From NCBI GenBank assembly GCA_041738755.1, contig JBGSPE010000002.1, forward strand, positions 13,290-77,289: a DNA stretch of 64,000 nt, written 5' to 3'. Under the pieces are notes generated by a model. It was given only the letters and a program-made list of their open reading frames with translations, was not told the origin of the DNA and did no database searches. Shown piece after piece: positions 1,542 to 62,065 of the stretch (positions within the stretch are counted from its first letter, which is position 1; the number at the start of each line of letters is the position of its first letter). The DNA comes from Minisyncoccia bacterium (GTDB lineage Bacteria; Patescibacteriota; Minisyncoccia; Phycocordibacterales; UBA918). The position numbers and the translations under genes were made by a program.

Positions 1542-1934
1542 GGGGATGCTAGGCATCGACGGTTAGTCGTGTCGGATGTGTGCGTGTCGAAACAGGTAAT
1601 CAATTCGTTAAAAGGTTCCACTCTGTATTTGCAAACAAAGCAGTACCAAGTCCATACGCTAACGCGTTTGGATTCGCTCCAGCTGTAGCGTAACTTTACG
1701 CTCGCTCTGGCGATGCTCTCGCAGTAAGTGTCTCGTACGCTGTGTTGGGTAGAATAACCATGAGACCCTGGAAACCATTGTCGTTGTCATAGGTGCCCAA
1801 GATTGTAACAACTCGAGTGACTAGTGTTTTGAGTTTCCTTAAGCTCGTTACTTTAAATTAAAGGATTCTCTACACACGTAGATGCACCTTCGCACCCTAA
1901 TTCGGACGTGGATTCAATTTCCACCATCTCCACC
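1542..1934 (+). ncRNA. ssrA: Transfer-messenger RNA (tmRNA, SsrA), one-piece
   Basis: The 5' GGGGATG pairs with the 3' CATCTCC and has a G3:U wobble, the alanine identity element. The T-arm is GTGGA-TTCAATT-TCCAC, followed by ACC. An internal tag reading frame starts with GCA at 1631 and ends with TAA at 1691; it encodes ANKAVPSPYANAFGFAPAVA. The gene lies directly downstream of smpB. Confidence 0.85.
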
Positions 1935-1997
1935 GACATAGAAGTATGTAGAAGAATATGTAACAACATAGAAGTTTACTCGCAAGGGTAGGCTTTT

Positions 1998-2369
1998 TTG
2001 TTTTTTGGTATACTTACATCTATGACACCACAAAAGTTTCTAGCAGAGCTTAAAGCCTTTGATAAAGTGAAGTACTCAATCGTAAAGCAATTACGTGACA
2101 TCATTTTAACAGTCAATCAATCAGCTTCAGAAGAAGTAAAGTATGGAGGATTGCATTATTTGGCCAGCAAGCCGTACACAGGTCTGTTTGTTAGCAAAAA
2201 TCATGTCTCGATGGAATTTAGTGAAGGGGCACAGTTCACTGATCCTAAAGGATTATTACAAGGAAAAGGCAAAGGTAGACGGCATCTAAAATTTACCTCC
2301 ACAGAGGATATTGAAGAAAAAGATATAAAAATGTTTTTAAAACAAGCAATGAAAATTGCTAAACAATAA
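1998..2369 (+). CDS. Hypothetical protein, possibly DUF1801/YdhG-like
   Basis: 123-aa ORF, weak family resemblance only. The start may be the internal Met at 2022. Confidence 0.35.
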   Translation: MFFGILTSMTPQKFLAELKAFDKVKYSIVKQLRDIILTVNQSASEEVKYGGLHYLASKPYTGLFVSKNHVSMEFSEGAQFTDPKGLLQGKGKGRRHLKFTSTEDIEEKDIKMFLKQAMKIAKQ

Positions 2370-26690: not shown

Positions 26691-27086
26691 TTACCAAATG
26701 ATGAAAAGTTGCTCACCACCCACTTGCTTCTCCTTGGCTTCCACGTTTGTGAGGATACCAGCTGGAGTAGAGAGGATCATGTGTCCCTTACCAAACTTTA
26801 CGGGGTGAATATCAGCGACCTTGGTGTACAGACGTCGTCCTGGCTTAGAAATACGCTTCACGCCATTGATTCGGTGTGATCCGTCTTCGTACCGCAACGT
26901 GATTTCAAGTGTTTTGTCTTGAACTCGCTTGCCCTGCTCTACCGCAGAAACGATGTAGCCTGCTTCTACTAACTTCTTTGCTACGCTGTGGCGGAGTTTT
27001 GAGTATGGTACTGAAACCGTACTCTTACCTACTGCCCCGGCGTTTTTGAGGCGGATAATGAAATCGCCGATAATGTCTCCTACCAT
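26691..27086 (-). CDS. rpsH: 30S ribosomal protein S8
   Basis: [13 protein letters not shown] ... [14 protein letters not shown]. Confidence 0.9.
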
Positions 27087-27892: not shown

Positions 27893-28543
27893 ATGTCAAA
27901 AAAAGGAAGGCTCATGGGAGCTCTTGAAGGTCTCGGTCTGGTGGAATCCGAAGGTGGCGAAACGCAACCTGAAGCAACCGCGACCCCTGTACCTTCACCC
28001 CAAACCAGTTCGCCGCCTTCTACCATAACAGCTACGGCTGTTTCTGGAGCTGACCCGGCAATGGTGACGAAAATCCGCGCAGCGGTTACCAATGCCGGAC
28101 ACTCGCCTCGCCTCGCCAGTTTTCTGGCTCAACTCGAGATCGCCCGCCAAGCCTTCCCGAACGATGAAAAAACTGCAGTAGCTGCAGCACTCGCATTTTC
28201 GAAGCTGTCTGCGGCCGAGATTCGTGAGGAGTTGTCAAAGTCTGCTGCAGCTGCACTCGTCGAAGCGGAGCAAAGCATCCGCAATGATATTCGCAATAAA
28301 CGCGAAAATGCTTCTGGAGAACTCGAGAAAAAGTCATTGCAGCTGCAGGCCGAAGTGACTAGTCTCGAAGAGCAGCTCGCGTCAATCTCGCAGAAGCTCG
28401 CAGCTGCCAAAGCTGGACTCGCTGGCATCACCAGTGAACGTTTGGCGACCGATACTGGCATTAATGAAATGGAAGCGAAGGCAATGTCCAGCCATGCGGT
28501 GGTCAAAGCCGAACTCGACAAAATCAACACCCTGCTGCCATAA
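27893..28543 (+). CDS. Hypothetical coiled-coil protein with a Pro/Thr/Ser-rich N-terminal linker
   Basis: 216 aa, high GC, Ala/Glu/Leu-rich heptad-like C-terminal half. Confidence 0.4.
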   Translation: MSKKGRLMGALEGLGLVESEGGETQPEATATPVPSPQTSSPPSTITATAVSGADPAMVTKIRAAVTNAGHSPRLASFLAQLEIARQAFPNDEKTAVAAALAFSKLSAAEIREELSKSAAAALVEAEQSIRNDIRNKRENASGELEKKSLQLQAEVTSLEEQLASISQKLAAAKAGLAGITSERLATDTGINEMEAKAMSSHAVVKAELDKINTLLP

Positions 28544-28576
28544 TTTTACGCAGCCCAGTAGAAAAGGAACTAAGCA

Positions 28577-29605
28577 ATGGCTGGATCTTCCAACCAAATG
28601 AATGATTTCTTCGACCAACTGCCGACTCCCCCCAGGGAGAAGGTGGTGCGCGGCGTCTGGTATGCCGGAGTGAGCGTCGCTGGCCTGGCCGGCTTCCTCA
28701 CCGTCATGCCCTACGTAAACCAAGCGCTTTCGCTTGGTCTCGAAGGTGCAACTCTCTTCGTGAAGCTGGGTGCCGTCGGTGTCATTGGTGCCGCCGGTGC
28801 TTACACTGCTATGTCCTTCTGGACCCCGTTCAAACGGAAGGTCGAGAGCATGGCACGCAACACTACCATCGCTATCTTCGGCGAAGATCCGATTACGCCA
28901 CTCCATATGTGGCTGGCGGAAGTTCGCGAAGACCTCGATGGGGTCCTCACCTCTGCTCGTGAAATCGGCGGTCTTATTGCCGAAAACGATAAGACGGTCG
29001 AAGACAACCTGCACTTCCTTTCGGAAGCCGACAAACGCGTCGCGGCCGCAACCAAGCGCCACGGCGAAAACAGCATCCAGACCCGAACCGCTTCGATCGA
29101 AGCCAAAGGTTTCAAGGACCGTGCAGACAACGCGAATCGTATCAACCATCCGCTTAAGGCGACCTATGTCACACTGAGCCAGGTAGGCGATGCAATCAAG
29201 ATGACCGAACGGCAAGCCGAAACCGACATCGAGACTGCGACCCTCGAATGGCGTGCAGCGCTGGCAGCTGAAAAAGCTATCGGCAAGGCACAACGTTCGC
29301 TCGGTAAGCGGAGTCAGCGCTACGTCGAGGCCACTATGGCCTTCGACATCATCCGTCAGAAGTACGCCGGCACATTCGGTCAATTGCGCGCGCTGCGTCA
29401 ACAGACTGAAGAGACCATCAGTAGGATGGACCTTAACGACGCTGTTGCTCACGAAGAAGCTCTCGAGCGACTTCGCGAAAACAGCCAAAAACTGCTCGGC
29501 TTCCAACCGACACTTCCGGCGCCCGACTTCACTACCAATCAAGGGACGCCTGTCCTCATTGAGGGTCGGTCGGTCAACGAACTCAAGCTTTTTGACGATA
29601 AGTAA
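28577..29605 (+). CDS. Hypothetical membrane protein: 2 N-terminal TM helices and a ~250-aa coiled-coil/helical domain
   Basis: 342 aa. Hydrophobic segments (GVWYAGVSVAGLAGFLTVM, LFVKLGAVGVIGAAGAYTAMSFW) followed by a long helical region. Confidence 0.45.
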   Translation: MAGSSNQMNDFFDQLPTPPREKVVRGVWYAGVSVAGLAGFLTVMPYVNQALSLGLEGATLFVKLGAVGVIGAAGAYTAMSFWTPFKRKVESMARNTTIAIFGEDPITPLHMWLAEVREDLDGVLTSAREIGGLIAENDKTVEDNLHFLSEADKRVAAATKRHGENSIQTRTASIEAKGFKDRADNANRINHPLKATYVTLSQVGDAIKMTERQAETDIETATLEWRAALAAEKAIGKAQRSLGKRSQRYVEATMAFDIIRQKYAGTFGQLRALRQQTEETISRMDLNDAVAHEEALERLRENSQKLLGFQPTLPAPDFTTNQGTPVLIEGRSVNELKLFDDK

Positions 29606-29668
29606 TCAAGTCGTTACGTAAGAGCTAATAACACCAAACCAGTACCTGAGAAGAAAAGGAATCAAGAA

Positions 29669-31216
29669 ATGGCATACAATATCTCAAGCAAGGGCAAAAT
29701 CGCTCTCGCGGGACTCGCAGGCCTCTTCGTTGTCGGTGCCTATGGACTCTGGTCCGCAGTGCCCGACAACTGGAAATCTGCGGCAAGTAGCGTGGTCGCA
29801 CCCGGTGGTGACACTATTGCGATCGAAAGCAGCGAAGAAGCAATCGATGTCTGCGTCGTCACCTGGGGTGGCTACGCCGGCGGACAGTACTTCAACCGCG
29901 GCTTCAAGCCGAGCGATGCCTCGCTGTACAAGCAGCGCTACAACCTGACGGTGAACTTCCACGTCATCGACGACTTCAACGCGTCGCGTGAAGCGTACAA
30001 GGCCGGCGATTGTGACCTTCTCTGGGCCACGATCGACGCCTTCACGACCGAAGCAGCTACCTTGCAGAAGGCTGGATTCAACCCCAAATTTCTGTTCCAA
30101 GCTGACTGGTCGCGCGGCGGTGACGCCATCGTGGCCGGTCCGGGCATCAAATCGATGTCCGATCTGCGCGGCAAGCGCGTGGCAGTAGCGTTCGGGACTC
30201 CATCCCATACGTTCCTGCTGCGGATGCTCGAGGCAGCTGGTATGACAACCAGCGACCTCACCATCATCGACACAGGTAATGCCATCGACGCCGCCAAGGC
30301 GTTCCAGACTGGCAACGCTGAAGCGGCCGTCGTCTGGTCTCCAGACGATACCGCCAGTGTCAATGCTGTGCCGGGAAGCACGGTGATGATCAGCACGCGT
30401 GAAGCGTCGCACATCATCGCTGATGGCTTCATCGCCGAAGCAAACTACATTGAATCTCACCGAGAAGAGCTGAGAGCCCTCATCGAGGGCTGGATGATCG
30501 GCGCGGGTGATATCAACTCGAATGCGGCGGCCAAGACGGAAGCCTCGAATATTCTCGCTACTGGGCTCAACATCCCGGCAGCAGATGCTCTGGCAGCAAT
30601 CAATAACGTCCGTCTCACGACGCTCGGCGACAACCGCCAGTTCTTCGGACTGGAAAGTGGCGCCACCATGACTGGTGAACGCCTCTTCACGGCAAGCGCC
30701 CGTCTGTACCAGCAGAACGGATACACGTCACTGGTTCCGGAAATTCCGGCCTGGCGCAGCATCACGGACATCAGTCTGCTGAGCGGCGTCAACCTGAATA
30801 CTCCGAACCAAGCTGCCGAAGGTCGCACGAGCTTTGCTCAAGCTGACACTTCGGCCGCAAGTGCACAGGCAATCGCCTCTCGGGGTCTGTCGGTGCAGTT
30901 CGCGACCGGATCGGCTACGCTGAGCGATGAAGCAAAGGCGGTGATCATGCGTGAATTCGTGCAAGGCACTGGTGATTCGTTCGCCGGCGCCCGAGTGCGT
31001 ATTGAAGGGAATACGGACAACACCGGTTCCCGCACCACGAACGTAACTCTGTCACAGCGTCGTGCTGAGGCAGTGGCCAACTTCCTGGTGACCCTCGGCT
31101 TCGATCGCAATCGCTTCGTCGTCGTTGGCAATGGTCCGGACAAACCCGTCTGCAACTCGCAGGACGCAGCCTGTATGGCACAAAATCGCCGCACAGACTT
31201 TGAGCTGATTCGGTAA
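29669..31216 (+). CDS. ABC-transporter substrate-binding protein (NMT1/SsuA/TauA-like) fused to a C-terminal OmpA/MotB-like peptidoglycan-binding domain
   Basis: N-terminal TM anchor. Central periplasmic-binding fold (KRVAVAFGTPSHTFLLRMLEAAG ... AVVWSPD). C-terminal OmpA_C-like segment (VRIEGNTDNTGSRTTNVTLSQRRAEAVANFL ... NRRTDFELI). Confidence 0.6.
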   Translation: MAYNISSKGKIALAGLAGLFVVGAYGLWSAVPDNWKSAASSVVAPGGDTIAIESSEEAIDVCVVTWGGYAGGQYFNRGFKPSDASLYKQRYNLTVNFHVIDDFNASREAYKAGDCDLLWATIDAFTTEAATLQKAGFNPKFLFQADWSRGGDAIVAGPGIKSMSDLRGKRVAVAFGTPSHTFLLRMLEAAGMTTSDLTIIDTGNAIDAAKAFQTGNAEAAVVWSPDDTASVNAVPGSTVMISTREASHIIADGFIAEANYIESHREELRALIEGWMIGAGDINSNAAAKTEASNILATGLNIPAADALAAINNVRLTTLGDNRQFFGLESGATMTGERLFTASARLYQQNGYTSLVPEIPAWRSITDISLLSGVNLNTPNQAAEGRTSFAQADTSAASAQAIASRGLSVQFATGSATLSDEAKAVIMREFVQGTGDSFAGARVRIEGNTDNTGSRTTNVTLSQRRAEAVANFLVTLGFDRNRFVVVGNGPDKPVCNSQDAACMAQNRRTDFELIR

Positions 31217-31402
31217 TCACGAGTACCAGTACCTAGTGGGTTGGGACCTAGATCCCAACCCACTACCTTCCTCCAAGGGTATGTGAACAATCACATTATC
31301 CTTGGAGGCATCTCTCACTTTGCAATAGTTTGTTGATTGAGAGCTGCCAAATTATCGAGGGAGCATGTACCTTAAGAATTAAAGAAAGAAAAGGAGAACA
31401 TC

Positions 31403-32209
31403 ATGCGTAAGCTTACGAACAATCTGTTCGAGCTACGCGGAGAAATCACCACTCAACAGAAAACCATCCTTGGTATCCTTGGAGTAGTTGTCTGGTTCTT
31501 GAGCTGGTGGCTCATCTCTGCACAAGCGTGGCTTCCGCCACAGGTTGCACCAGGACCATTTGCGGTCTTGGGTGCCATCCCCGAGTTGCACTTTGAGCAT
31601 GCTCTGGTGCGAAACGTCTGGTACACCTTGCAGATGAACCTGCATGGCACAATGAACGCAATTTTGTTCAGCCTGCCAATCGGTTTACTGCTCGGCCTAA
31701 CACCGTTCCTTCGTGGCATGGCGACGCCGTTTTATGTCGGTTTGAGGTTTATTCCTCTCCCAGTCATCATCGGTCTGTTCATGCTCTGGGCCGGTATCGG
31801 TTATTCGATGAAAACATGGTTCCTCACCTTCGCCATCATCGTTTACCTGATCCCGACAGTAATCCAGCGCGTCGATGAGACGCCAAATATCTATGTCAAC
31901 ACAGCACGAACGCTGGGGGCAAATAGATGGCAAATCATCTGGAATGTCTATATCCCTGACGTGTTCTCACGCGTCTGGGACGACATTGTTATCTTGGTGG
32001 CTATTTCCTGGACGTACATCAGTATCGTCGAGGTAGTCAATAAGAGCGACGGTGGCATCGGCGCACTCATCTATATGGCACAACGGCAAAGCAGTCCTGA
32101 GAAGTACTATGCACTGCTTCTCATCCTCATGCTGGTGGCCTATCTGCAGACGCTCGCGTTCAAGCAGATCGGTCAGTGGCTATTCCCCCACAAGCGAATT
32201 GGGAGGTAA
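31403..32209 (+). CDS. ABC transporter permease (NitT/TauT family)
   Basis: Six TM helices. EAA-like loop region ([20 protein letters not shown]). Confidence 0.7.
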
Positions 32210-32211
32210 TC

Positions 32212-33024
32212 ATGGTTAACGGAGTAACCTTCGTCGACACAGCACTTCCGAACATCGTAGAGTTCAGGGGTGTGACACAACAGTATGGTGAGAAGACAGT
32301 GCTCAACGAGCTCGATCTTCTCATTGAAGACAAACCTAATCAGGGTCAGTTTGCTGTGATTCTCGGCATCTCTGGTTCAGGTAAATCGACTCTGTTTCGG
32401 TACCTTAACGGACTGAGCAGTCCGACCAGTGGTGAAGTCCTCATCAAGGATCAGCCGATTGGTCAGTTCGGTGCTGTCAGTACAGTGTTTCAAGACTACT
32501 CGTCTCTACCTTGGTTTTCGGTGCTGCGAAATGTTGAGCTTCCGCTCAAAATTCGTGGCGTCCCGAGAAAAGAACGACGTGAACGGGCACTCGAGATGAT
32601 AGAAAAAGTTGGTCTCAAGGGGCACGAGAAAAAATACGCTCGTGCGCCAGAGCTTTCTGGCGGACAATTGCAACGCGTTGCAATTGCCCGTAGCCTGATT
32701 GCAAATCCAGAACTTATCCTTATGGACGAACCGTTCGGTGCGCTTGATGGCATTACGCGTTACGAAATGCAAATGCTCCTCAGTAAGTTGTGGAGGGATC
32801 TGCAGTCAACGGTCCTGTTTGTCACGCACGATCTGCAGGAAGCTGTGCTGCTTGGGGATGATATCTATATCCTTGACCCGCGTATCGGAAAAATCGGCAG
32901 GCACATCCCTGTGAATCTCGGTCTTGACCGAGACATCACAATCAAAAGAGACCCACGCTTCATGCAACTGGTCCTCGAGGTCGAAGAAGCACTTATGGCA
33001 ACAAGCATACCACTTCAACCATAA
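32212..33024 (+). CDS. ABC transporter ATP-binding protein (NitT/TauT family)
   Basis: Walker [10 protein letters not shown], signature LSGGQLQRV, Walker [13 protein letters not shown], and an H-loop. Confidence 0.8.
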
Positions 33025-33123
33025 CAGTTCTTCGATGCACCTTTTGGGGCGGGCTCTTTGAGTCCGCCCCTTTATCGAAAATTTTTGCTTTCAAACATCA
33101 TTGGATAACGAAAAGGATCCATT

Positions 33124-33981
33124 ATGCAACTATCAATTGAACTCGCTGACCTCGAAGCAATGATCCCCGATCACCGTGGCAATACGCTCTTTGAAAGAGC
33201 GTTAGCAACAGGTACAACGGGAGAGGATCTGATTAACCTCATCGCCAACTATATTCAATTCAATTCAAGTTTCGGCAGCGGCGTTGCAAACCTCGCAGGA
33301 GAAATTGGTTCTCAACCGGATCTTTTCCAAGATATGGCTGAGCCCTTGAAGATATTTGCCGATCGAAGCGTAGAGGTTGCCAGCCGCATCTTATTTGCCG
33401 CCGTTGATGAATTCAACGACAGCGGTACTGAACATCTTGATACGCACCGCACCCTCGCACAAGCCGCGCTGAAAGGTATCGGACAGTTCTTCGGCTACAC
33501 ACCGTCACAGCTGAATGACATCATCTCAATCAACTCGGTTACGACCGAAGCGATTGAGCAAGTACGTCTCGGTTATGCTATCAGCCAAAACGTAACTGAG
33601 GAAGTCCTCTTCCGTGCGCTGGGATTCCATATGGGATCTGAGATTCTGGCCGATGAAGAGTTTCGACTGATTGATGAACTTCTCAAGCAGGAGCATCCGG
33701 AGCTGGTCAGCCATCTCGAACGGACCCACGTCGAAATCAACGGATATCCTCACTCAACATACTATTGGATTCGCATCCATACCACGGTTGAAGCAGATCA
33801 TTTTGCATCTGCTTCAACTGGGGTCAATCTTGCACTTCAATACTATGCGGGCAAGCATCAGCTCGAAGAGGTCAGGAAATGGGTCCTCGAAGGTTTCGCT
33901 ACCTTTGCATCAATTCAATCGATGTTCATGCAAGGTCTGCTGAATTCTCAACTGGTGAGCGATGTCGCTACCAACAACTAA
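33124..33981 (+). CDS. Hypothetical helical protein, possibly heme-oxygenase-like (TenA/PqqC/CADD-type) fold
   Basis: 285 aa. Spaced E/H/D motifs (EEVLFRALGFHMGSE, HTTVEADHF) resemble HO-like di-metal or TenA-like proteins. Sits next to a NitT/TauT transporter, as TenA does with ThiXYZ. Weak assignment. Confidence 0.3.
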   Translation: MQLSIELADLEAMIPDHRGNTLFERALATGTTGEDLINLIANYIQFNSSFGSGVANLAGEIGSQPDLFQDMAEPLKIFADRSVEVASRILFAAVDEFNDSGTEHLDTHRTLAQAALKGIGQFFGYTPSQLNDIISINSVTTEAIEQVRLGYAISQNVTEEVLFRALGFHMGSEILADEEFRLIDELLKQEHPELVSHLERTHVEINGYPHSTYYWIRIHTTVEADHFASASTGVNLALQYYAGKHQLEEVRKWVLEGFATFASIQSMFMQGLLNSQLVSDVATNN

Positions 33982-34104
33982 TCAATGATCTTTTGAAACT
34001 ACAAGGCGGGGCTCAATGAGCTCCGCCTTTCTTCTATTTGACGGAAAAACAGTTCCCTGTATATTGGTGCTAAACCTGGTCTTTGACTACCATAGGAGGA
34101 AAAA

Positions 34105-34665
34105 TTGGAAACACGTAATCTGCGTAAAATCGCCACCGGCCTGAAAATGATTTCTGGTGCATTGGTGATGGGAGCCTTACTCTTGGAGTCCATCAAGAAG
34201 GACGTTGCCCCTCCATCACCACAGAAACAATCAGGGAGCATCCAGAGTCAAATGGTGATTGTGGGGATTCGTCTCCTTGAACTTCAGCGGACTGAAGGTC
34301 AATCTCTGCAGGATTTCATGGAGATTCGATACAGTGCTTTGTACTTACTCGGTCGAGCCGGCCATTCACTGACCGAGCAGGAACTGGATGAGCACGCAAA
34401 TGCGTTTGCCCACTTCCATCAGCAACGCTACCAGCTTTTTGGACAGGACGTCGACCGAACACTCTCAGAATGGTATCAAACATCTGGAGAGAGTCGTCAG
34501 ATTCCCCTGCAGACCTTGCTACAGAAATGCGAATTAACGAACCATACACTTGACATGTCGGGCTATGTTTCATTCTGTCTCACCGGCACAGATTTTGACG
34601 GGAGGAAACAAGACATTGGCACAGAAGAGTGGGAGCAGATCAAATATCGCTTCAACATTCAGTAA
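34105..34665 (+). CDS. Hypothetical protein
   Basis: 186-aa ORF with a possible N-terminal signal/TM segment (MISGALVMGALLL). Confidence 0.35.
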   Translation: METRNLRKIATGLKMISGALVMGALLLESIKKDVAPPSPQKQSGSIQSQMVIVGIRLLELQRTEGQSLQDFMEIRYSALYLLGRAGHSLTEQELDEHANAFAHFHQQRYQLFGQDVDRTLSEWYQTSGESRQIPLQTLLQKCELTNHTLDMSGYVSFCLTGTDFDGRKQDIGTEEWEQIKYRFNIQ

Positions 34666-38725: not shown

Positions 38726-39052
38726 TTATTTAGCCTTAGCTGCTTTAGCGGCTGCGATTTCGGCGTCTTTCTTCTTCTGTTCAAGTTCTTTTTGCATCTT
38801 ACCTCCGTGACGATGGAATTTCTTTGTTGGTGAGAATTCACCAAGCTTGTGACCTACCATTTCTTCGGTGACCAAGACGTCGGTGTGGACTTTGCCGTTG
38901 TGAACGCCAAAGGTGAACCCGACCATTTCTGGAGAAATTACTGAATTTCGTGCCCAGGTCTTGATGCTGCCACTCTCTCCGGGCTTTTTACCGGCGATCT
39001 TCTTGAGGAGCTTTTCGTCTACGTATGGTCCTTTATATAATGATCTGGACAT
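38726..39052 (-). CDS. rpsS: 30S ribosomal protein S19
   Basis: [19 protein letters not shown] ... [18 protein letters not shown]. Confidence 0.9.
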
Positions 39053-39425
39053 AACTGATTCAAGGGCATTGATGGTGAAATTCTTTGGCGCTACGGAATT
39101 TTATCGTTCATCGTACAAGGAGTACGTCTCACTCAAAAATTCCTAAGCTTCGCGAATTTCCCTCACCACTGCACCTTTCATTATTAGTATTTTCTAGTAA
39201 CCCGCATGTCGTAACTCGTCAGTGTAATACTGAAACGAGCCGCCCAGTGGCGGCTGATTGAGAATCCCTTATAAAGACAGGTAACGGCCGGCCTTAGTAG
39301 GGATTCCCAGTCCTTTATTTTGTTGTTTTGTTAGTCTCCTTAAGATAGTAGAGACCAACGTGCGACAAAGGTTGGAACCCGCTGAGAATACCAAAATACC
39401 CAGAAAAGTCAATCATTTCTCCATT

Positions 39426-39444
39426 ATCAAGGTGTCACCTTGAT
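39426..39444. promoter_or_regulatory. Perfect 19-bp palindrome ATCAAGGTGTCACCTTGAT, a candidate dimeric-regulator operator
   Basis: Exact dyad symmetry, ~110 nt upstream of the small peptide gene. A second GC palindrome (CCCTAGG-CCGGT-CCTAGGG) lies at 39459-39477. Confidence 0.4.
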
Positions 39445-39553
39445 ATCTTTTAAATTCTCCCTAGGCCGGTCCTAGGGATAATTAGGCTTATTTTACAAAT
39501 ATCTATTTACAAAAGTAAAAATTGTAGTGCTGTAAAAAGAGGAGGATTGCATT

Positions 39554-39673
39554 ATGGGGTACGAAATTGTCGTGTTTATTGTCGTTCTAGGCCTGTTTGG
39601 TCTCTATCGTGCATGGTCTTACTGGTCCTATCTCCGTGAACTATGGAAGGAAAGCGAACGCAGTGGCCAGTGA
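39554..39673 (+). CDS. Small hydrophobic peptide, 39 aa (MGYEIVVFIVVLGLFGLYRAWSYWSYLRELWKESERSGQ)
   Basis: Near-perfect SD (AAAGAGGAGG) 7 nt upstream of the ATG. One TM helix plus an aromatic/charged tail. Immediately followed by a strong intrinsic terminator. Too short to appear in the supplied ORF track. Confidence 0.45.
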   Translation: MGYEIVVFIVVLGLFGLYRAWSYWSYLRELWKESERSGQ

Positions 39674-39677
39674 GCCT

Positions 39678-39719
39678 GGGAGGTGATGGTTTTCAATCAT
39701 CACCTCCCTTTTGCTTTTG
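39678..39719 (+). terminator. Intrinsic terminator after the small peptide gene
   Basis: GGGAGGTGATGG-TTTTCAA-TCATCACCTCCC followed by TTTTGCTTTTG. Confidence 0.75.
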
Positions 39720-39808
39720 TGGTTGTAACACCACGTGATTACTTGCTTTTTTACGTGTAGAGGAGTTTAATCTTTGCTGGAAGGTTCCACACATAGGGAG
39801 AGGCGCTT

Positions 39809-40252
39809 ATGACCTATAATATCTTTTGGGCAGCACTACTCGCAATTTCGACAGGCATAGTTATCAACGGTTTTACCGCTGGATTGCTATCACAGGGTAC
39901 CAAGCTACCCTGGAAAGATATCTGGCTGCGTTTGACCAGCGTACTCTTGCTGGTTGTGAGTATCACCATCATGTGCTCGCTCATTTCCACCGCTCTGTGG
40001 GCTGTGATTGTCACTTTCGGCCTCAACATTGCTGTTATCTGGAAAACAAGATTACTCAAATCCCATCAGCTGGTTAGCCTGACTGGTTGGCTCGTCGCAG
40101 CTGTCAGCTTCTTAATTGGCCAGTCCGCCGCTACCGGCAACATTGTCCAAGCTGAAACGTTTGTCCTCCTTGGCCTCATCTCCGGTGTCCTTGTTGGAGG
40201 CATCTTAGGTGTTTTGCACCTACTCACCAAGAAGAGCGGTCAGGTAGATTAA
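39809..40252 (+). CDS. Hypothetical 4-TM membrane protein
   Basis: 147 aa, four hydrophobic helices. RBS GGGAGAGG. Confidence 0.5.
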   Translation: MTYNIFWAALLAISTGIVINGFTAGLLSQGTKLPWKDIWLRLTSVLLLVVSITIMCSLISTALWAVIVTFGLNIAVIWKTRLLKSHQLVSLTGWLVAAVSFLIGQSAATGNIVQAETFVLLGLISGVLVGGILGVLHLLTKKSGQVD

Positions 40253-40266
40253 TTATGTGTTCGGTA

Positions 40267-40310
40267 TCGAGGTCTTGCAGAGCAAGACCTCGACCGGGCT
40301 TTTTTATTTG
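40267..40310 (+). terminator. Intrinsic terminator
   Basis: TCGAGGTCTTGC-AGAGC-GCAAGACCTCGA (12-bp stem) followed by CCGGGCTTTTTTATTTG. Confidence 0.75.
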
Positions 40311-40326
40311 TGGTAGTGTAATACGC

Positions 40327-40641
40327 ATGAAACACCGCGGACGAGAACATACGTCACTTACAGAGACTGCTACCATAGTAGTGTACGAGCTAAAAAAAAT
40401 TCCTGGCATCAAAATGATTGCTCCTGGAGAAATACGGAGTAATAAAAGAAGTGCCGGCACCAGATACGTTACGGCAAGCTATACAAATGGTGGCTTTGAG
40501 CTACTTATTAGTGGTCAAAGTATTCAAAAAGTTGCTGTCCATACCAGTGATGATCCGGCAACTATTTTTAATCAACTGCAACAGAGTAAGAAATTGACTG
40601 ATTTCGTTTTCAAGACGAGAGAACGAAAACCAGGGATTTAG
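40327..40641 (+). CDS. Hypothetical protein, ~104 aa
   Basis: Start moved downstream of the terminator that lies inside the longer frame. No recognisable domain. Confidence 0.3.
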   Translation: MKHRGREHTSLTETATIVVYELKKIPGIKMIAPGEIRSNKRSAGTRYVTASYTNGGFELLISGQSIQKVAVHTSDDPATIFNQLQQSKKLTDFVFKTRERKPGI

Positions 40642-41004: not shown

Positions 41005-42207
41005 CTATAACTCGTCTAATGCTTCATCAATAAGGTCTTCTGCTTCATCAATAAGGTCAAGTACTTCATCATAGTCCTCATCTTCAAAGGCATCTTCTGC
41101 ATCATTTAATACATCTTCTGCTTCGTCGAGTAGGTCACGTGCATCATCTACATCATCTCCGTCGTCCTCTGCTTCATCAATTTCATTTTCAGCATCATCG
41201 AAGTCGTCCCAGGCGTCATCGAGAGCATCCTCAGCTTCAGACTCCTCATCATCACCTCCACCTTCTTCAATTTCATCTTGAGCATCTTTGACCAGGTCTT
41301 CTACTTCTTCCGCAAGATCCATTGCCTCGTCATAATCTTCATCGTTGAAGGCATCAAGGGCATCATCAAAGAGGTCTTCGGCTTCATCAAGCAAGTCTTC
41401 TGCATCTCCGGTTGATTCATCATTATCTTCTGCTTCATCAAATTCATCCCAAGCGTCATTCAAAAGGTCTTCTACTTCATCAAGTAAATCTTCAGCTTCA
41501 GATTCTTCTGATTCGCCACCAGCTTCTTCAAAGGCTTCCTCAGCTAGGTCATAGGCTTCTTCAAGGAAACCTTCCGCTCCATCAGTATCGTCATTAAAGA
41601 ATTCTTTGGCTGCTTTGAAGAATTCTTCTTTTGCGTCATTAAGATCTCTCGTGGCTCGAACGAAACTATCACCACTCTCAAGATCTTCAATTGCATCTTC
41701 TGCGTCTTGAATGAGCTCAATGGTTTTAATAAACCATGCTGCTAATTCTGCACTTGCTGAAGTAGCCGCACCAGCAACTACAGGTTGCGGTGTAGTGGTT
41801 GGGGTTGGTAGTGGGCTGCTTGGAACTTGAGACAGCGGTGGCGTAGTTCCTCCACCTGCAAGTCCAAGCTTGTAGGCCGCTTGTGAGATAGGGCCAAAAA
41901 TACCCACAGTTGGAGTAATCTGATTGGCTGCTTGCCATTTGCTGACAGCTTCTTTCGTGAGCGTCTGGTAAAGTGTTGTTTCATTGCCTGGTGAACCTGG
42001 ACCACTTTCAGCAATTTTGAATCCATTTTCATTGAGGAATACTTGGAGACATCGGACATCTTCACCTTGTACACCAAGATCAAGAGTACGCGTAAATGTA
42101 CATTCCTCAGCGGCCTGCGATACCGACGGTACCATGGATAATGCAACAAACATCAACACGGTAGCGAGAGCTGTCGTTGATGACTGTGAACGTAAAGTGA
42201 TTTTCAT
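41005..42207 (-). CDS. Secreted protein: signal peptide, peptidoglycan-binding (PG_binding_1-like) domain, Pro/Thr linker, and a ~230-aa extremely acidic Asp/Glu repeat region
   Basis: Signal sequence (LATVLMFVALSMVPSVSQAAE). PG-binding-like segment (DVRCLQVFLNENGF ... LTKEAVSKWQAANQI). The C-terminus has repeated units (EDLLDEAEDLFDDALDAFNDEDYDEAMDLAEEVEDL, etc.), and the DNA is repetitive. Confidence 0.55.
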   Translation of the reverse strand: MKITLRSQSSTTALATVLMFVALSMVPSVSQAAEECTFTRTLDLGVQGEDVRCLQVFLNENGFKIAESGPGSPGNETTLYQTLTKEAVSKWQAANQITPTVGIFGPISQAAYKLGLAGGGTTPPLSQVPSSPLPTPTTTPQPVVAGAATSASAELAAWFIKTIELIQDAEDAIEDLESGDSFVRATRDLNDAKEEFFKAAKEFFNDDTDGAEGFLEEAYDLAEEAFEEAGGESEESEAEDLLDEVEDLLNDAWDEFDEAEDNDESTGDAEDLLDEAEDLFDDALDAFNDEDYDEAMDLAEEVEDLVKDAQDEIEEGGGDDEESEAEDALDDAWDDFDDAENEIDEAEDDGDDVDDARDLLDEAEDVLNDAEDAFEDEDYDEVLDLIDEAEDLIDEALDEL

Positions 42208-42517: not shown

Positions 42518-43378
42518 TTATCTTTTGCCACCCATGAGGCGGCCTGGCTTTCGTCGTGAGACGATGAGCTTGTTTGAGTACTTCTTTGGTGATCGAGTCT
42601 TTTGACCCTTTCCGGTCGGACGACCTTGTTTGGTTCGTTGTCGTCGGTGTCCTCGTGGAGATTTTCCTTCTCCACCTCCGTGAGGGTGATCCACCGCGTT
42701 CTTCGCAGCTCCACGAGTCTTCGGTCGAAGTCCCATGTGTCGAGCACGTCCTGCCTTACCAATATCTACCAATCGATGTTCTTCATTTGAAACTGATCCG
42801 ATTGAAGCCCACCCGCTGTTTACTACTTTTCGGATTTCTGAAGATGGCATCTTGAGCGTAGTATGCTTTGCATCTTGTGCGACTACCTCAATATGACTTC
42901 CAGCAGACCGAGCAAGTTGTGCTCCAGCTCCCGGCTTGATTTCTACGTTATACACGAAGGTACCAACTGGGATAGCGTTAAGCGGTAGTCGGTTACCGAC
43001 TTTTGGCTTGGCTGTTTCTGAGGTCACAATGACATCTCCTTGCTTGAGAGCTTGGGGTGCCAAGATGTATCGTCGTTCACCGTCCATGTAACACACGAGG
43101 GCGATAAATCCTGAACGGTTTGGATCGTACTCAATCGTTTCTACTTTCGCAGGAACTTCTTTTTTATCGTACTTGAAGTCAATCAAACGATAGGTCCGCT
43201 TGTTTCCTCCTCCTCGATAGTGAGTAGTAATCCGTCCTTGGTTGTTACGTCCACCAGTATTTCGCTTGCCTTTGGTAAGAGACTTGAGCGGATTACTTTG
43301 GGTCGAAGTAAGTTTCTTCTTATATTCAATGACTGAACCATCACGTCGTCCAGCCGATGTTGGCTTATACTTTTTCAT
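42518..43378 (-). CDS. rplB: 50S ribosomal protein L2
   Basis: 286 aa, L2 family (GRNNQGRITTHYRGGGNKR ..., C-terminal GGGEGKSPRGHRR). Confidence 0.9.
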   Translation of the reverse strand: MKKYKPTSAGRRDGSVIEYKKKLTSTQSNPLKSLTKGKRNTGGRNNQGRITTHYRGGGNKRTYRLIDFKYDKKEVPAKVETIEYDPNRSGFIALVCYMDGERRYILAPQALKQGDVIVTSETAKPKVGNRLPLNAIPVGTFVYNVEIKPGAGAQLARSAGSHIEVVAQDAKHTTLKMPSSEIRKVVNSGWASIGSVSNEEHRLVDIGKAGRARHMGLRPKTRGAAKNAVDHPHGGGEGKSPRGHRRQRTKQGRPTGKGQKTRSPKKYSNKLIVSRRKPGRLMGGKR

Positions 43379-56880: not shown

Positions 56881-56926
56881 AAAAAGGCCGGTTAAAAAAT
56901 CATATGATTTTTTAACCGGCCTTTTC
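56881..56926. terminator. Bidirectional terminator
   Basis: AAAAAGGCCGGTTAAAAAATCATATGATTTTTTAACCGGCCTTTTC, a long perfect palindrome. Confidence 0.8.
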
Positions 56927-62004: not shown

Positions 62005-62065
62005 TTGCTCAATCAATATGGGCGGAAGCATTGCTTCCGCCCATAATAACCAAAAGGAATTCTCT

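Follow-up and report, generated by a model that had tools for sequence, protein, structure and literature searches.

A putative 39-codon membrane-peptide gene in a genome-specific cassette between L2 and S19 of a Paceibacteria genome

Introduction

Does a 39-codon reading frame that sits among ribosomal-protein genes, behind two hairpins and ahead of a terminator of its own, encode a protein, and if so what would that protein do there? The frame (hereinafter pep39) lies within positions 39426-39719 of a 64,000-nt stretch of DNA, the whole of which is referred to as the window, and an earlier note had read it as a highly expressed gene whose product resembles type I toxins of the Hok/Fst/TisB/Ldr class or small modulators of membrane proteins. 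The next gene on the same strand encodes a 147-aa membrane protein (hereinafter tm147). We examined the anatomy of pep39, the place it occupies in the genome and in related genomes, its relation to tm147, and the readings of its function that these features favor or disfavor.

Results

Anatomy of the pep39 locus

The pep39 ORF occupies 39554-39673 on the plus strand and translates into MGYEIVVFIVVLGLFGLYRAWSYWSYLRELWKESERSGQ, a 39-aa product identical to the peptide quoted in the earlier note. Upstream lies the Shine-Dalgarno (SD) sequence AAAGAGGAGG (39536-39545, plus strand), joined to the ATG at 39554 by the spacer ATTGCATT; the near-consensus SD described before is present, with a spacer of 8 nt instead of the 7 nt then given, a trivial difference. 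Downstream, the intrinsic terminator at 39678-39719 (plus strand) starts 5 nt after the stop codon and is as first described, with a 14-nt stem spanning 39678-39708 (93% complementary), a 3-nt loop, a fold energy of about -22 kcal/mol and the tail TTTTGCTTTTG.

The promoter scan returned no plus-strand promoter in the interval 39492-39521 and no convincing one for pep39; read by eye, TTTACA-18-TAAAAA at 39492-39521 on the plus strand is a weak candidate. The proposed arrangement is a short SD-led transcription unit, in which a promoter within 39446-39530 would be followed by the SD, the 39-codon ORF and the strong terminator. A 5′-3′ fold-back sequestering the SD appeared with one assumed transcription start and vanished with others, and it was rejected as evidence.

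A variable slot in a split S10 operon

On the minus strand, the ribosomal-protein series L5-L24-L14-S17-L29-L16-S3-L22-S19 ends at 39052 and L2-L23-L4-L3 resume only at 42518, so that rplB and rpsS are separated by a 3.46-kb insertion, in which pep39 lies. The window comes from a Paceibacteria (Patescibacteria) MAG, and its S19 is 88-90% identical to S19 of Parcubacteria/Paceibacteria MAGs. Across 80 related Paceibacteria loci the distance between L2 and S19 ranges from 18 to 5586 bp, so the junction is unstable in this clade. The closest relatives (L003, L017, L055, L013 and L032) keep p400 and/or a DUF2103 protein in the gap; the DUF2103 gene, whose true start is at 40327, is conserved, and between it and the S19 promoter each relative genome carries unrelated genes. 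The p400 gene itself (41005-42207, minus strand) encodes a protein that looks secreted, in which long acidic DUF4398-like repeats come after a PG_binding_1 domain, and it is conserved between L2 and S19 in L003, L017, L055 and L022.

The edges of the variable DNA can be placed closely. The promoter scan located the promoter of the S19-L22-S3 operon, a TG-extended TTGACT-16-TATTCT at 39385..39412 on the minus strand, at the edge of the conserved DNA, and the same motif (TTGACT-N16/17-TAYTCT) recurs in L017, L003, L055 and L022. By blastn, L017 and L032 are homologous to the window from the S19 start as far as 39413-39418, where the homology stops about 7 nt before the palindrome described below; homology with the relatives resumes at DUF2103. 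These breakpoints delimit a genome-specific segment from about 39419 to about 40320, which comprises two hairpins and the genes pep39 and tm147, each with a terminator of its own. A region homologous to the pep39 segment was found in none of the relatives, and a blastn search of the cassette against phages and plasmids for a mobile-element origin gave no match. We regard the part of the L2-S19 gap that DUF2103 and the S19 promoter enclose as a hypervariable cargo slot. The earlier placement of pep39 at the head of an insert, upstream of a 4-TM protein, is borne out in the sense that pep39 heads the variable part of the L2-S19 insert.

Hairpins at the edge of the slot

The perfect palindrome reported earlier is indeed exact. 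It reads ATCAAGGTGTCACCTTGAT at 39426-39444, 19 bp with zero mismatches, and is unique in the window, with 0 occurrences expected in shuffles; with its flanks it becomes TATCAAGGTGTCACCTTGATA (39425-39445, both strands), a 10+1+10 palindrome of 21 bp. The genome-specific segment opens with this palindrome, placed 12 nt upstream of the S19 -35 box. The palindrome is followed on the plus strand by TCTTTTAAAT, and the scan flagged it as terminator-like. The GC palindrome that had also been noted upstream of pep39 is a second, imperfect hairpin, AATTCTCCCTAGG-CCGGT-CCTAGGGATAATT at 39453-39483, whose 13-nt arms (39453-39465 and 39471-39483) are 92% complementary and whose core TCCCTAGGCCGGTCCTAGGGA is unique in the window. 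In L017 and L003, unrelated hairpins end 13 nt upstream of the same S19 -35 box.

Tight perfect palindromes (arm of at least 8, loop of at most 1) number 16 in the window, against about 2.4 expected in shuffles, and several of them, at gene ends and with arms of up to 22 bp, are far longer than the 21-bp palindrome. Such palindromes appear to be usual hairpin or terminator elements in this genome, and they are probably (bidirectional) terminator hairpins typical of it. Other members of the set include those at 46119-46151, 49963-49987, 56882-56925 and 62017-62045. For the 21-bp palindrome we infer the role of a slot-boundary or insulator (terminator) hairpin or, alternatively, of an operator.

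A structured S19 leader and other features of the window

The 5′ leader of the S19-L22-S3 operon, about 330 nt long (39053-39380, minus strand), is strongly folded, with a minimum free energy (MFE) of -111.6 kcal/mol, z = -5.9 and an MFE structure identical to the centroid. Within it lies a conserved 60-nt hairpin at 39255-39314 (UGGGAAUCCCU..UAAGGCCGGCCGUUACCUGUCUUUA..AGGGAUUCUCA), which is also found upstream of rpsS in L003, L012, L017, L022, L032, L055 and L074, with a weak match in L018. Compensatory changes affect six of its 18 pairs, and its G-U pairs are compatible with the S19-sense strand alone. The hairpin matches no Rfam family and may be a new ribosomal-protein leader.

Elsewhere in the window, a sharp GC trough at 46800-47900 (31-37% against about 45%) covers a 287-aa ORF (46988-47851) and may be another foreign segment. 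The tmRNA gene at 1542-1935 (plus strand, 97 bits) is the only Rfam match at the gathering threshold in the window, and no tRNA gene was found across the whole 64 kb.

Shine-Dalgarno sequences mark foreign-looking genes

Among the 67 plausible gene starts of the window, pep39 has the strongest pairing with the anti-SD (-11.3 kcal/mol), and tm147 ranks about sixth (-7.6 kcal/mol). About 48 of these starts, including those of all ribosomal-protein genes, have essentially no anti-SD pairing (> -4 kcal/mol); the window contains no 16S rRNA from which SD use by the host ribosome could be read. By eye, many starts either show, 3-8 nt ahead of the ATG, a -10-like hexamer, which looks leaderless, or follow directly on the preceding stop codon.

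The other SD-led genes of the window are those of a GC-rich ABC-transporter/OmpA island (27893-34665) and an IS110-family transposase (50476-51609), and slot genes of relatives (two in L003 and a 191-aa gene in L017) have SD-like leaders too. The island is a second insertion into the ribosomal cluster, between S8 (26691-27086) and L5 (35494-36042); its genes are SD-led (GAAAAGGA) at a GC content of 50-61%, include those for the permease and the ATPase of an ABC transporter and for a substrate-binding/OmpA fusion protein, and look horizontally acquired. The transposase, of the IS110/IS116/IS902 family and on the minus strand, is SD-led at a GC content of 0.56. A strong SD in this SD-poor genome is a flag of acquired, foreign-looking genes. 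The claim of high expression loses its footing here, because the strength of the pep39 SD marks the gene as foreign-looking and says nothing about its level of expression. A literature search on SD usage in Patescibacteria yielded nothing usable.

The predicted peptide

AlphaFold2 models pep39 as a single continuous helix of residues 2-37 (pLDDT 92). Its hydrophobic core, I5-Y18, comprises about 15 residues and is flanked by E4 and R19, and its C-terminal half is increasingly amphipathic and rich in Trp and Tyr, with a hydrophobic moment of up to 0.53. The peptide has a pI of 6.05 and a net charge of about zero. The hydrophobic helix and the Trp/Tyr-rich amphipathic tail described before thus reappear in the model and in the moment profile, with a tail of zero net charge. 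We read pep39 as an orphan peptide that probably spans the membrane once. The predicted topology is bitopic, with a short N-terminus facing outward and the C-terminus inside, an orientation that follows from the positive-inside rule, and the predicted Trp/Tyr-rich amphipathic helix R19-R36 would lie on the cytoplasmic face.

No homologue of pep39 was found by any route. Peptides under 40 aa appear to be absent from the protein collections that were searched, which makes these collections partly blind to homologues of this size and shifts the weight to DNA-level searches. At the protein level, a homologue search with a 40-aa version of pep39 produced no candidate, and an exact look-up in a 15-billion protein collection found the peptide absent. 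The only HMMER match among 1.84 billion representatives (P0002) was a 1386-aa translated tandem repeat that aligned in six weak stretches, and it was set aside as spurious. At the DNA level, tblastn of pep39 against the 80 related loci, phages and plasmids found nothing, and a degenerate DNA pattern for WSYWSYLRELW had 0 matches in metagenome and viral collections. Comparison with solved structures returned nothing significant.

Is pep39 a real gene?

The argument for a real gene starts from the conjunction of its parts. We searched 1.3 Mb on both strands (the window and the 80 related loci) for an SD of -8.5 kcal/mol or stronger, an ATG, an ORF of 20-60 aa, a hydrophobic segment and an adjacent terminator; this joint pattern occurs twice, and pep39 is one of the two occurrences. 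On the rarity of the pattern we judge pep39 to be a real small gene, and we hold this to be quite probable when all explanations under which it is coding are taken together. The ORF was also called by an independent gene caller, on two Logan contigs. Codon usage points the same way with less force: the codon log-likelihood of pep39 is weakly positive (+4.2), and alternative and overlapping frames across the locus are negative.

The alternative that survives best is that pep39 is untranslated, the locus specifying a small non-coding RNA or being a remnant of foreign DNA, and the open frame and the SD-like run being incidental. Conservation offers no counterweight to this reading, as pep39 is conserved nowhere: the only other copies, on the same two Logan contigs (SRR28170465 and SRR28170467), are 100% identical to the window, no other contig encoding the same DUF2103 or S19 protein was found, and with identical copies and no homologue there is no dN/dS from which purifying selection on the frame could be demonstrated. 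The codon score, moreover, stands at the 9th percentile among real 39-codon chunks and is about equaled by a 33-codon ORF in the S19 leader that is presumably non-coding. SD-like sites of comparable strength are frequent (about 100 in the window, both strands), 19 pairs of GGAGG and a start codon occur in the window, mostly within other genes, and most native genes of this genome lack an SD. Yet the joint pattern is very rare. The open frame fills exactly the stretch from the SD to the terminator and encodes an uninterrupted helix, hydrophobic and then amphipathic, that is modeled with confidence, and no Rfam family matches the pep39 locus, either at gathering thresholds or at E <= 5. We regard an untranslated pep39 as unlikely, though a reading to be reckoned with.

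A possible partnership with tm147

The second gene of the segment, tm147 (39809-40252, plus strand), has an SD-led start (GGGAGAGG) and encodes an orphan of 147 aa with four predicted helices. A single-sequence AlphaFold2 model has four long helices, but its low confidence (pLDDT 63, pTM 0.33) made it unsuitable for a fold search. In a set of 5.8 billion protein clusters tm147 matches only itself, and no relatives were found in JGI metagenomes, IMG/VR viral contigs or plasmids. The gene is followed by a terminator-like perfect 12-bp hairpin with a T-run, TCGAGGTCTTGC-AGA-GCAAGACCTCGA (40267-40315, plus strand), which forms the end of the variable segment. The sequences after the two terminators are alike, 39708-39726 (CTTTTGCTTTTGTGGTTGT) and 40299-40317 (CTTTTTTATTTGTGGTAGT) being 79% identical over 19 nt, with the second of them ahead of the DUF2103 start; as a duplicated junction or promoter this direct repeat is not relied on, since it is short, T-rich and maybe due to chance. 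In L032, a different polytopic (4-TM) membrane protein (1633-2229, minus strand) holds the same slot position beside the S19 promoter. Its similarity to tm147, 31% over 39 aa with E = 0.003 for a single comparison, is too weak to make it a homologue.

Each of the two genes is SD-led and absent from all relatives; they are neighbors on one strand, and one genome carries them. The reading that we favor, and to which we would give an even chance, is that pep39 is a genuine small protein-coding gene that was acquired together with tm147 in a foreign cassette and serves as a membrane partner or modulator of tm147. Under this proposal, pep39 and tm147 would constitute a genome-specific accessory cassette of foreign origin inserted between the S19-operon promoter and DUF2103; pep39 would most likely act as a membrane-embedded partner or modulator of tm147, and the terminator between the two genes would hold the peptide in stoichiometric excess. 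The same strong terminator and about 90 nt of DNA separate the genes, so that adjacency and the shared orphan and SD status are what speaks for a common function.

Does pep39 act as a type I toxin?

A second alternative makes pep39 a membrane-damaging type I toxin whose translation is checked by a cis-encoded antisense small RNA (sRNA). Such an sRNA would be transcribed from a minus-strand promoter-like site (39578..39551) in the first part of the ORF, cross the SD and have the two upstream hairpins as its structured body. Size and architecture suit this reading: with 39 aa and the core I5-Y18, pep39 is, like type I toxins, a small (under about 60 aa) hydrophobic peptide with a predicted transmembrane helix and a polar or charged tail. 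It also lies in a variable, foreign-looking segment, and its mRNA folds strongly (z-score -2.5), forming two 3′ hairpins. A minus-strand promoter-like sequence, TAAACA-16-CATAAT, occupies 39578..39551, and an RNA starting near 39545 would open with the SD-complementary CCUCCUC and span both hairpins.

The antisense half of this reading finds no support. Two minus-strand sites match 9 of 12 promoter positions (39578..39551 and 39519..39490), and the total for the region is exactly what shuffles give (6 against 6.0 expected); nor does a minus-strand terminator follow them, so an antisense RNA would read on into the S19 promoter, leader and operon. The antisense sRNA promoter that the earlier note advised looking for is consequently not distinguished from chance. 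No extended repeat complementary to the pep39 mRNA lies nearby. As for the toxin half, pep39 has no match in Pfam, NCBIfam, PHROGs or PADLOC, even at E <= 0.1-1, and the families considered comprised Hok/Gef, Fst, Ldr, TisB, Ibs, ShoB, TxpA/BsrG and others; its membership in the Hok/Fst/TisB/Ldr class is thus not supported. The gene exists in a single copy, without a paralogue elsewhere in the window, and the zero net charge of its tail also speaks against a toxin of this kind. A literature search on type I toxins in Patescibacteria returned nothing usable, and no joint mention of type I toxins and the candidate phyla radiation was found in the library searched. We consider a type I toxin rather improbable.

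A variant of this idea avoids the known families. Patescibacteria would possess a type I-like toxin-antitoxin or toxin-immunity module not described so far, with pep39 as its toxin; the module would travel on a mobile cassette that depends on SDs and inserts time and again into the hairpin-marked slot just upstream of the S19-operon promoter. In that case the 21-bp palindrome would either belong to the antisense RNA or serve the slot as a site of recombination or insulation. We think such a module distinctly improbable.

Leader-peptide and bacteriocin readings

The terminator lies so close to the stop codon (5 nt) that a ribosome paused or terminating there would mask the 5′ arm of its hairpin, and pep39 could accordingly be a regulatory leader peptide whose translation controls read-through at 39678-39719 and hence expression of tm147. 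The order of the parts on one strand (ORF, terminator just past the stop, next gene about 90 nt further) and the fact that both genes are orphans of one cassette would fit such a device. The folds, however, contain no antiterminator that pairs with the 5′ arm, so the mutually exclusive terminator and antiterminator of an attenuator are not seen at pep39, and the 3′ half of the ORF forms a separate hairpin. The peptide as read has no run of regulatory codons and no recognizable arrest motif, a pure leader peptide needs no full transmembrane helix, and tm147 has a plausible promoter of its own by eye, TTGCTT-17-TTTAAT at 39744-39772, downstream of the pep39 terminator. Regulation of tm147 by a leader peptide is highly improbable on these grounds.

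Barely credible, finally, is a leaderless bacteriocin-like or lysis peptide with tm147 as its multi-pass immunity protein: pep39 is a small Trp/Tyr-rich helical peptide devoid of signal or leader sequence, the protein encoded downstream is small and polytopic, a terminator after the structural gene would leave the peptide in excess and the cassette is strain-specific, but leaderless bacteriocins are strongly cationic whereas pep39 (pI 6.05) carries almost no net charge, the cassette has no export ABC transporter or accessory gene, no bacteriocin, immunity or holin family matches, and the cationic Trp-rich peptide with transporter and immunity genes that defines a leaderless class II bacteriocin was not found.

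Discussion

Taken by itself, pep39 would be one more orphan gene for a small membrane protein, a class that annotation pipelines routinely miss. Its context is more instructive than the gene, in that a strong SD flags recently acquired genes in an SD-poor Patescibacteria genome. The S10 operon, universally syntenic elsewhere, is split in this clade, and the split hosts a slot of fast turnover beside a conserved promoter and a structured leader RNA. Should pep39 prove toxic, or a modulator of tm147, it would open a way to study the accessory membrane functions of episymbiotic bacteria, in which very few small proteins have been characterized. The split operon with its variable slot, the covarying S19 leader hairpin and the SD-poor genome may outweigh pep39 in value.

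Three groups of known systems invite comparison with the favored reading of pep39 as a membrane partner or modulator of tm147 and with its alternatives. Type I toxins such as Fst/Ldr, Hok, TisB and BsrG are, like pep39, shorter than 60 aa, with one hydrophobic helix and a polar or charged tail, and are likewise encoded in small transcription units of their own, with a strong SD and a structured mRNA, on accessory DNA. Unlike them, pep39 has no sequence match to a family, is single-copy, has a tail of zero net charge and comes with no supportable antisense RNA gene, the candidate promoters being at chance level and followed by no terminator.

The second group consists of the small single-pass membrane-protein modulators of enterobacteria, among them AcrZ, MgtS, MgrB, CydX and KdpF. 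They resemble pep39 in their length of 30-50 aa, in their one transmembrane helix and in the position of the gene beside or upstream of that of a possible polytopic partner. In contrast to these modulators, pep39 shows no homology, its putative partner tm147 is itself an orphan, and a strong terminator stands between the two genes.

The third is an arrangement rather than a protein family: bacteriocin or pilin structural genes, for example, can be followed by an attenuating terminator, giving a layout of structural gene, leaky terminator and accessory gene. While pep39 differs from these in lacking a leader or processing motif, a cationic charge and genes for transport or modification, it shares with them a very short, strongly initiated first gene, a hairpin terminator behind it and, next on the same strand, a gene for a membrane protein.
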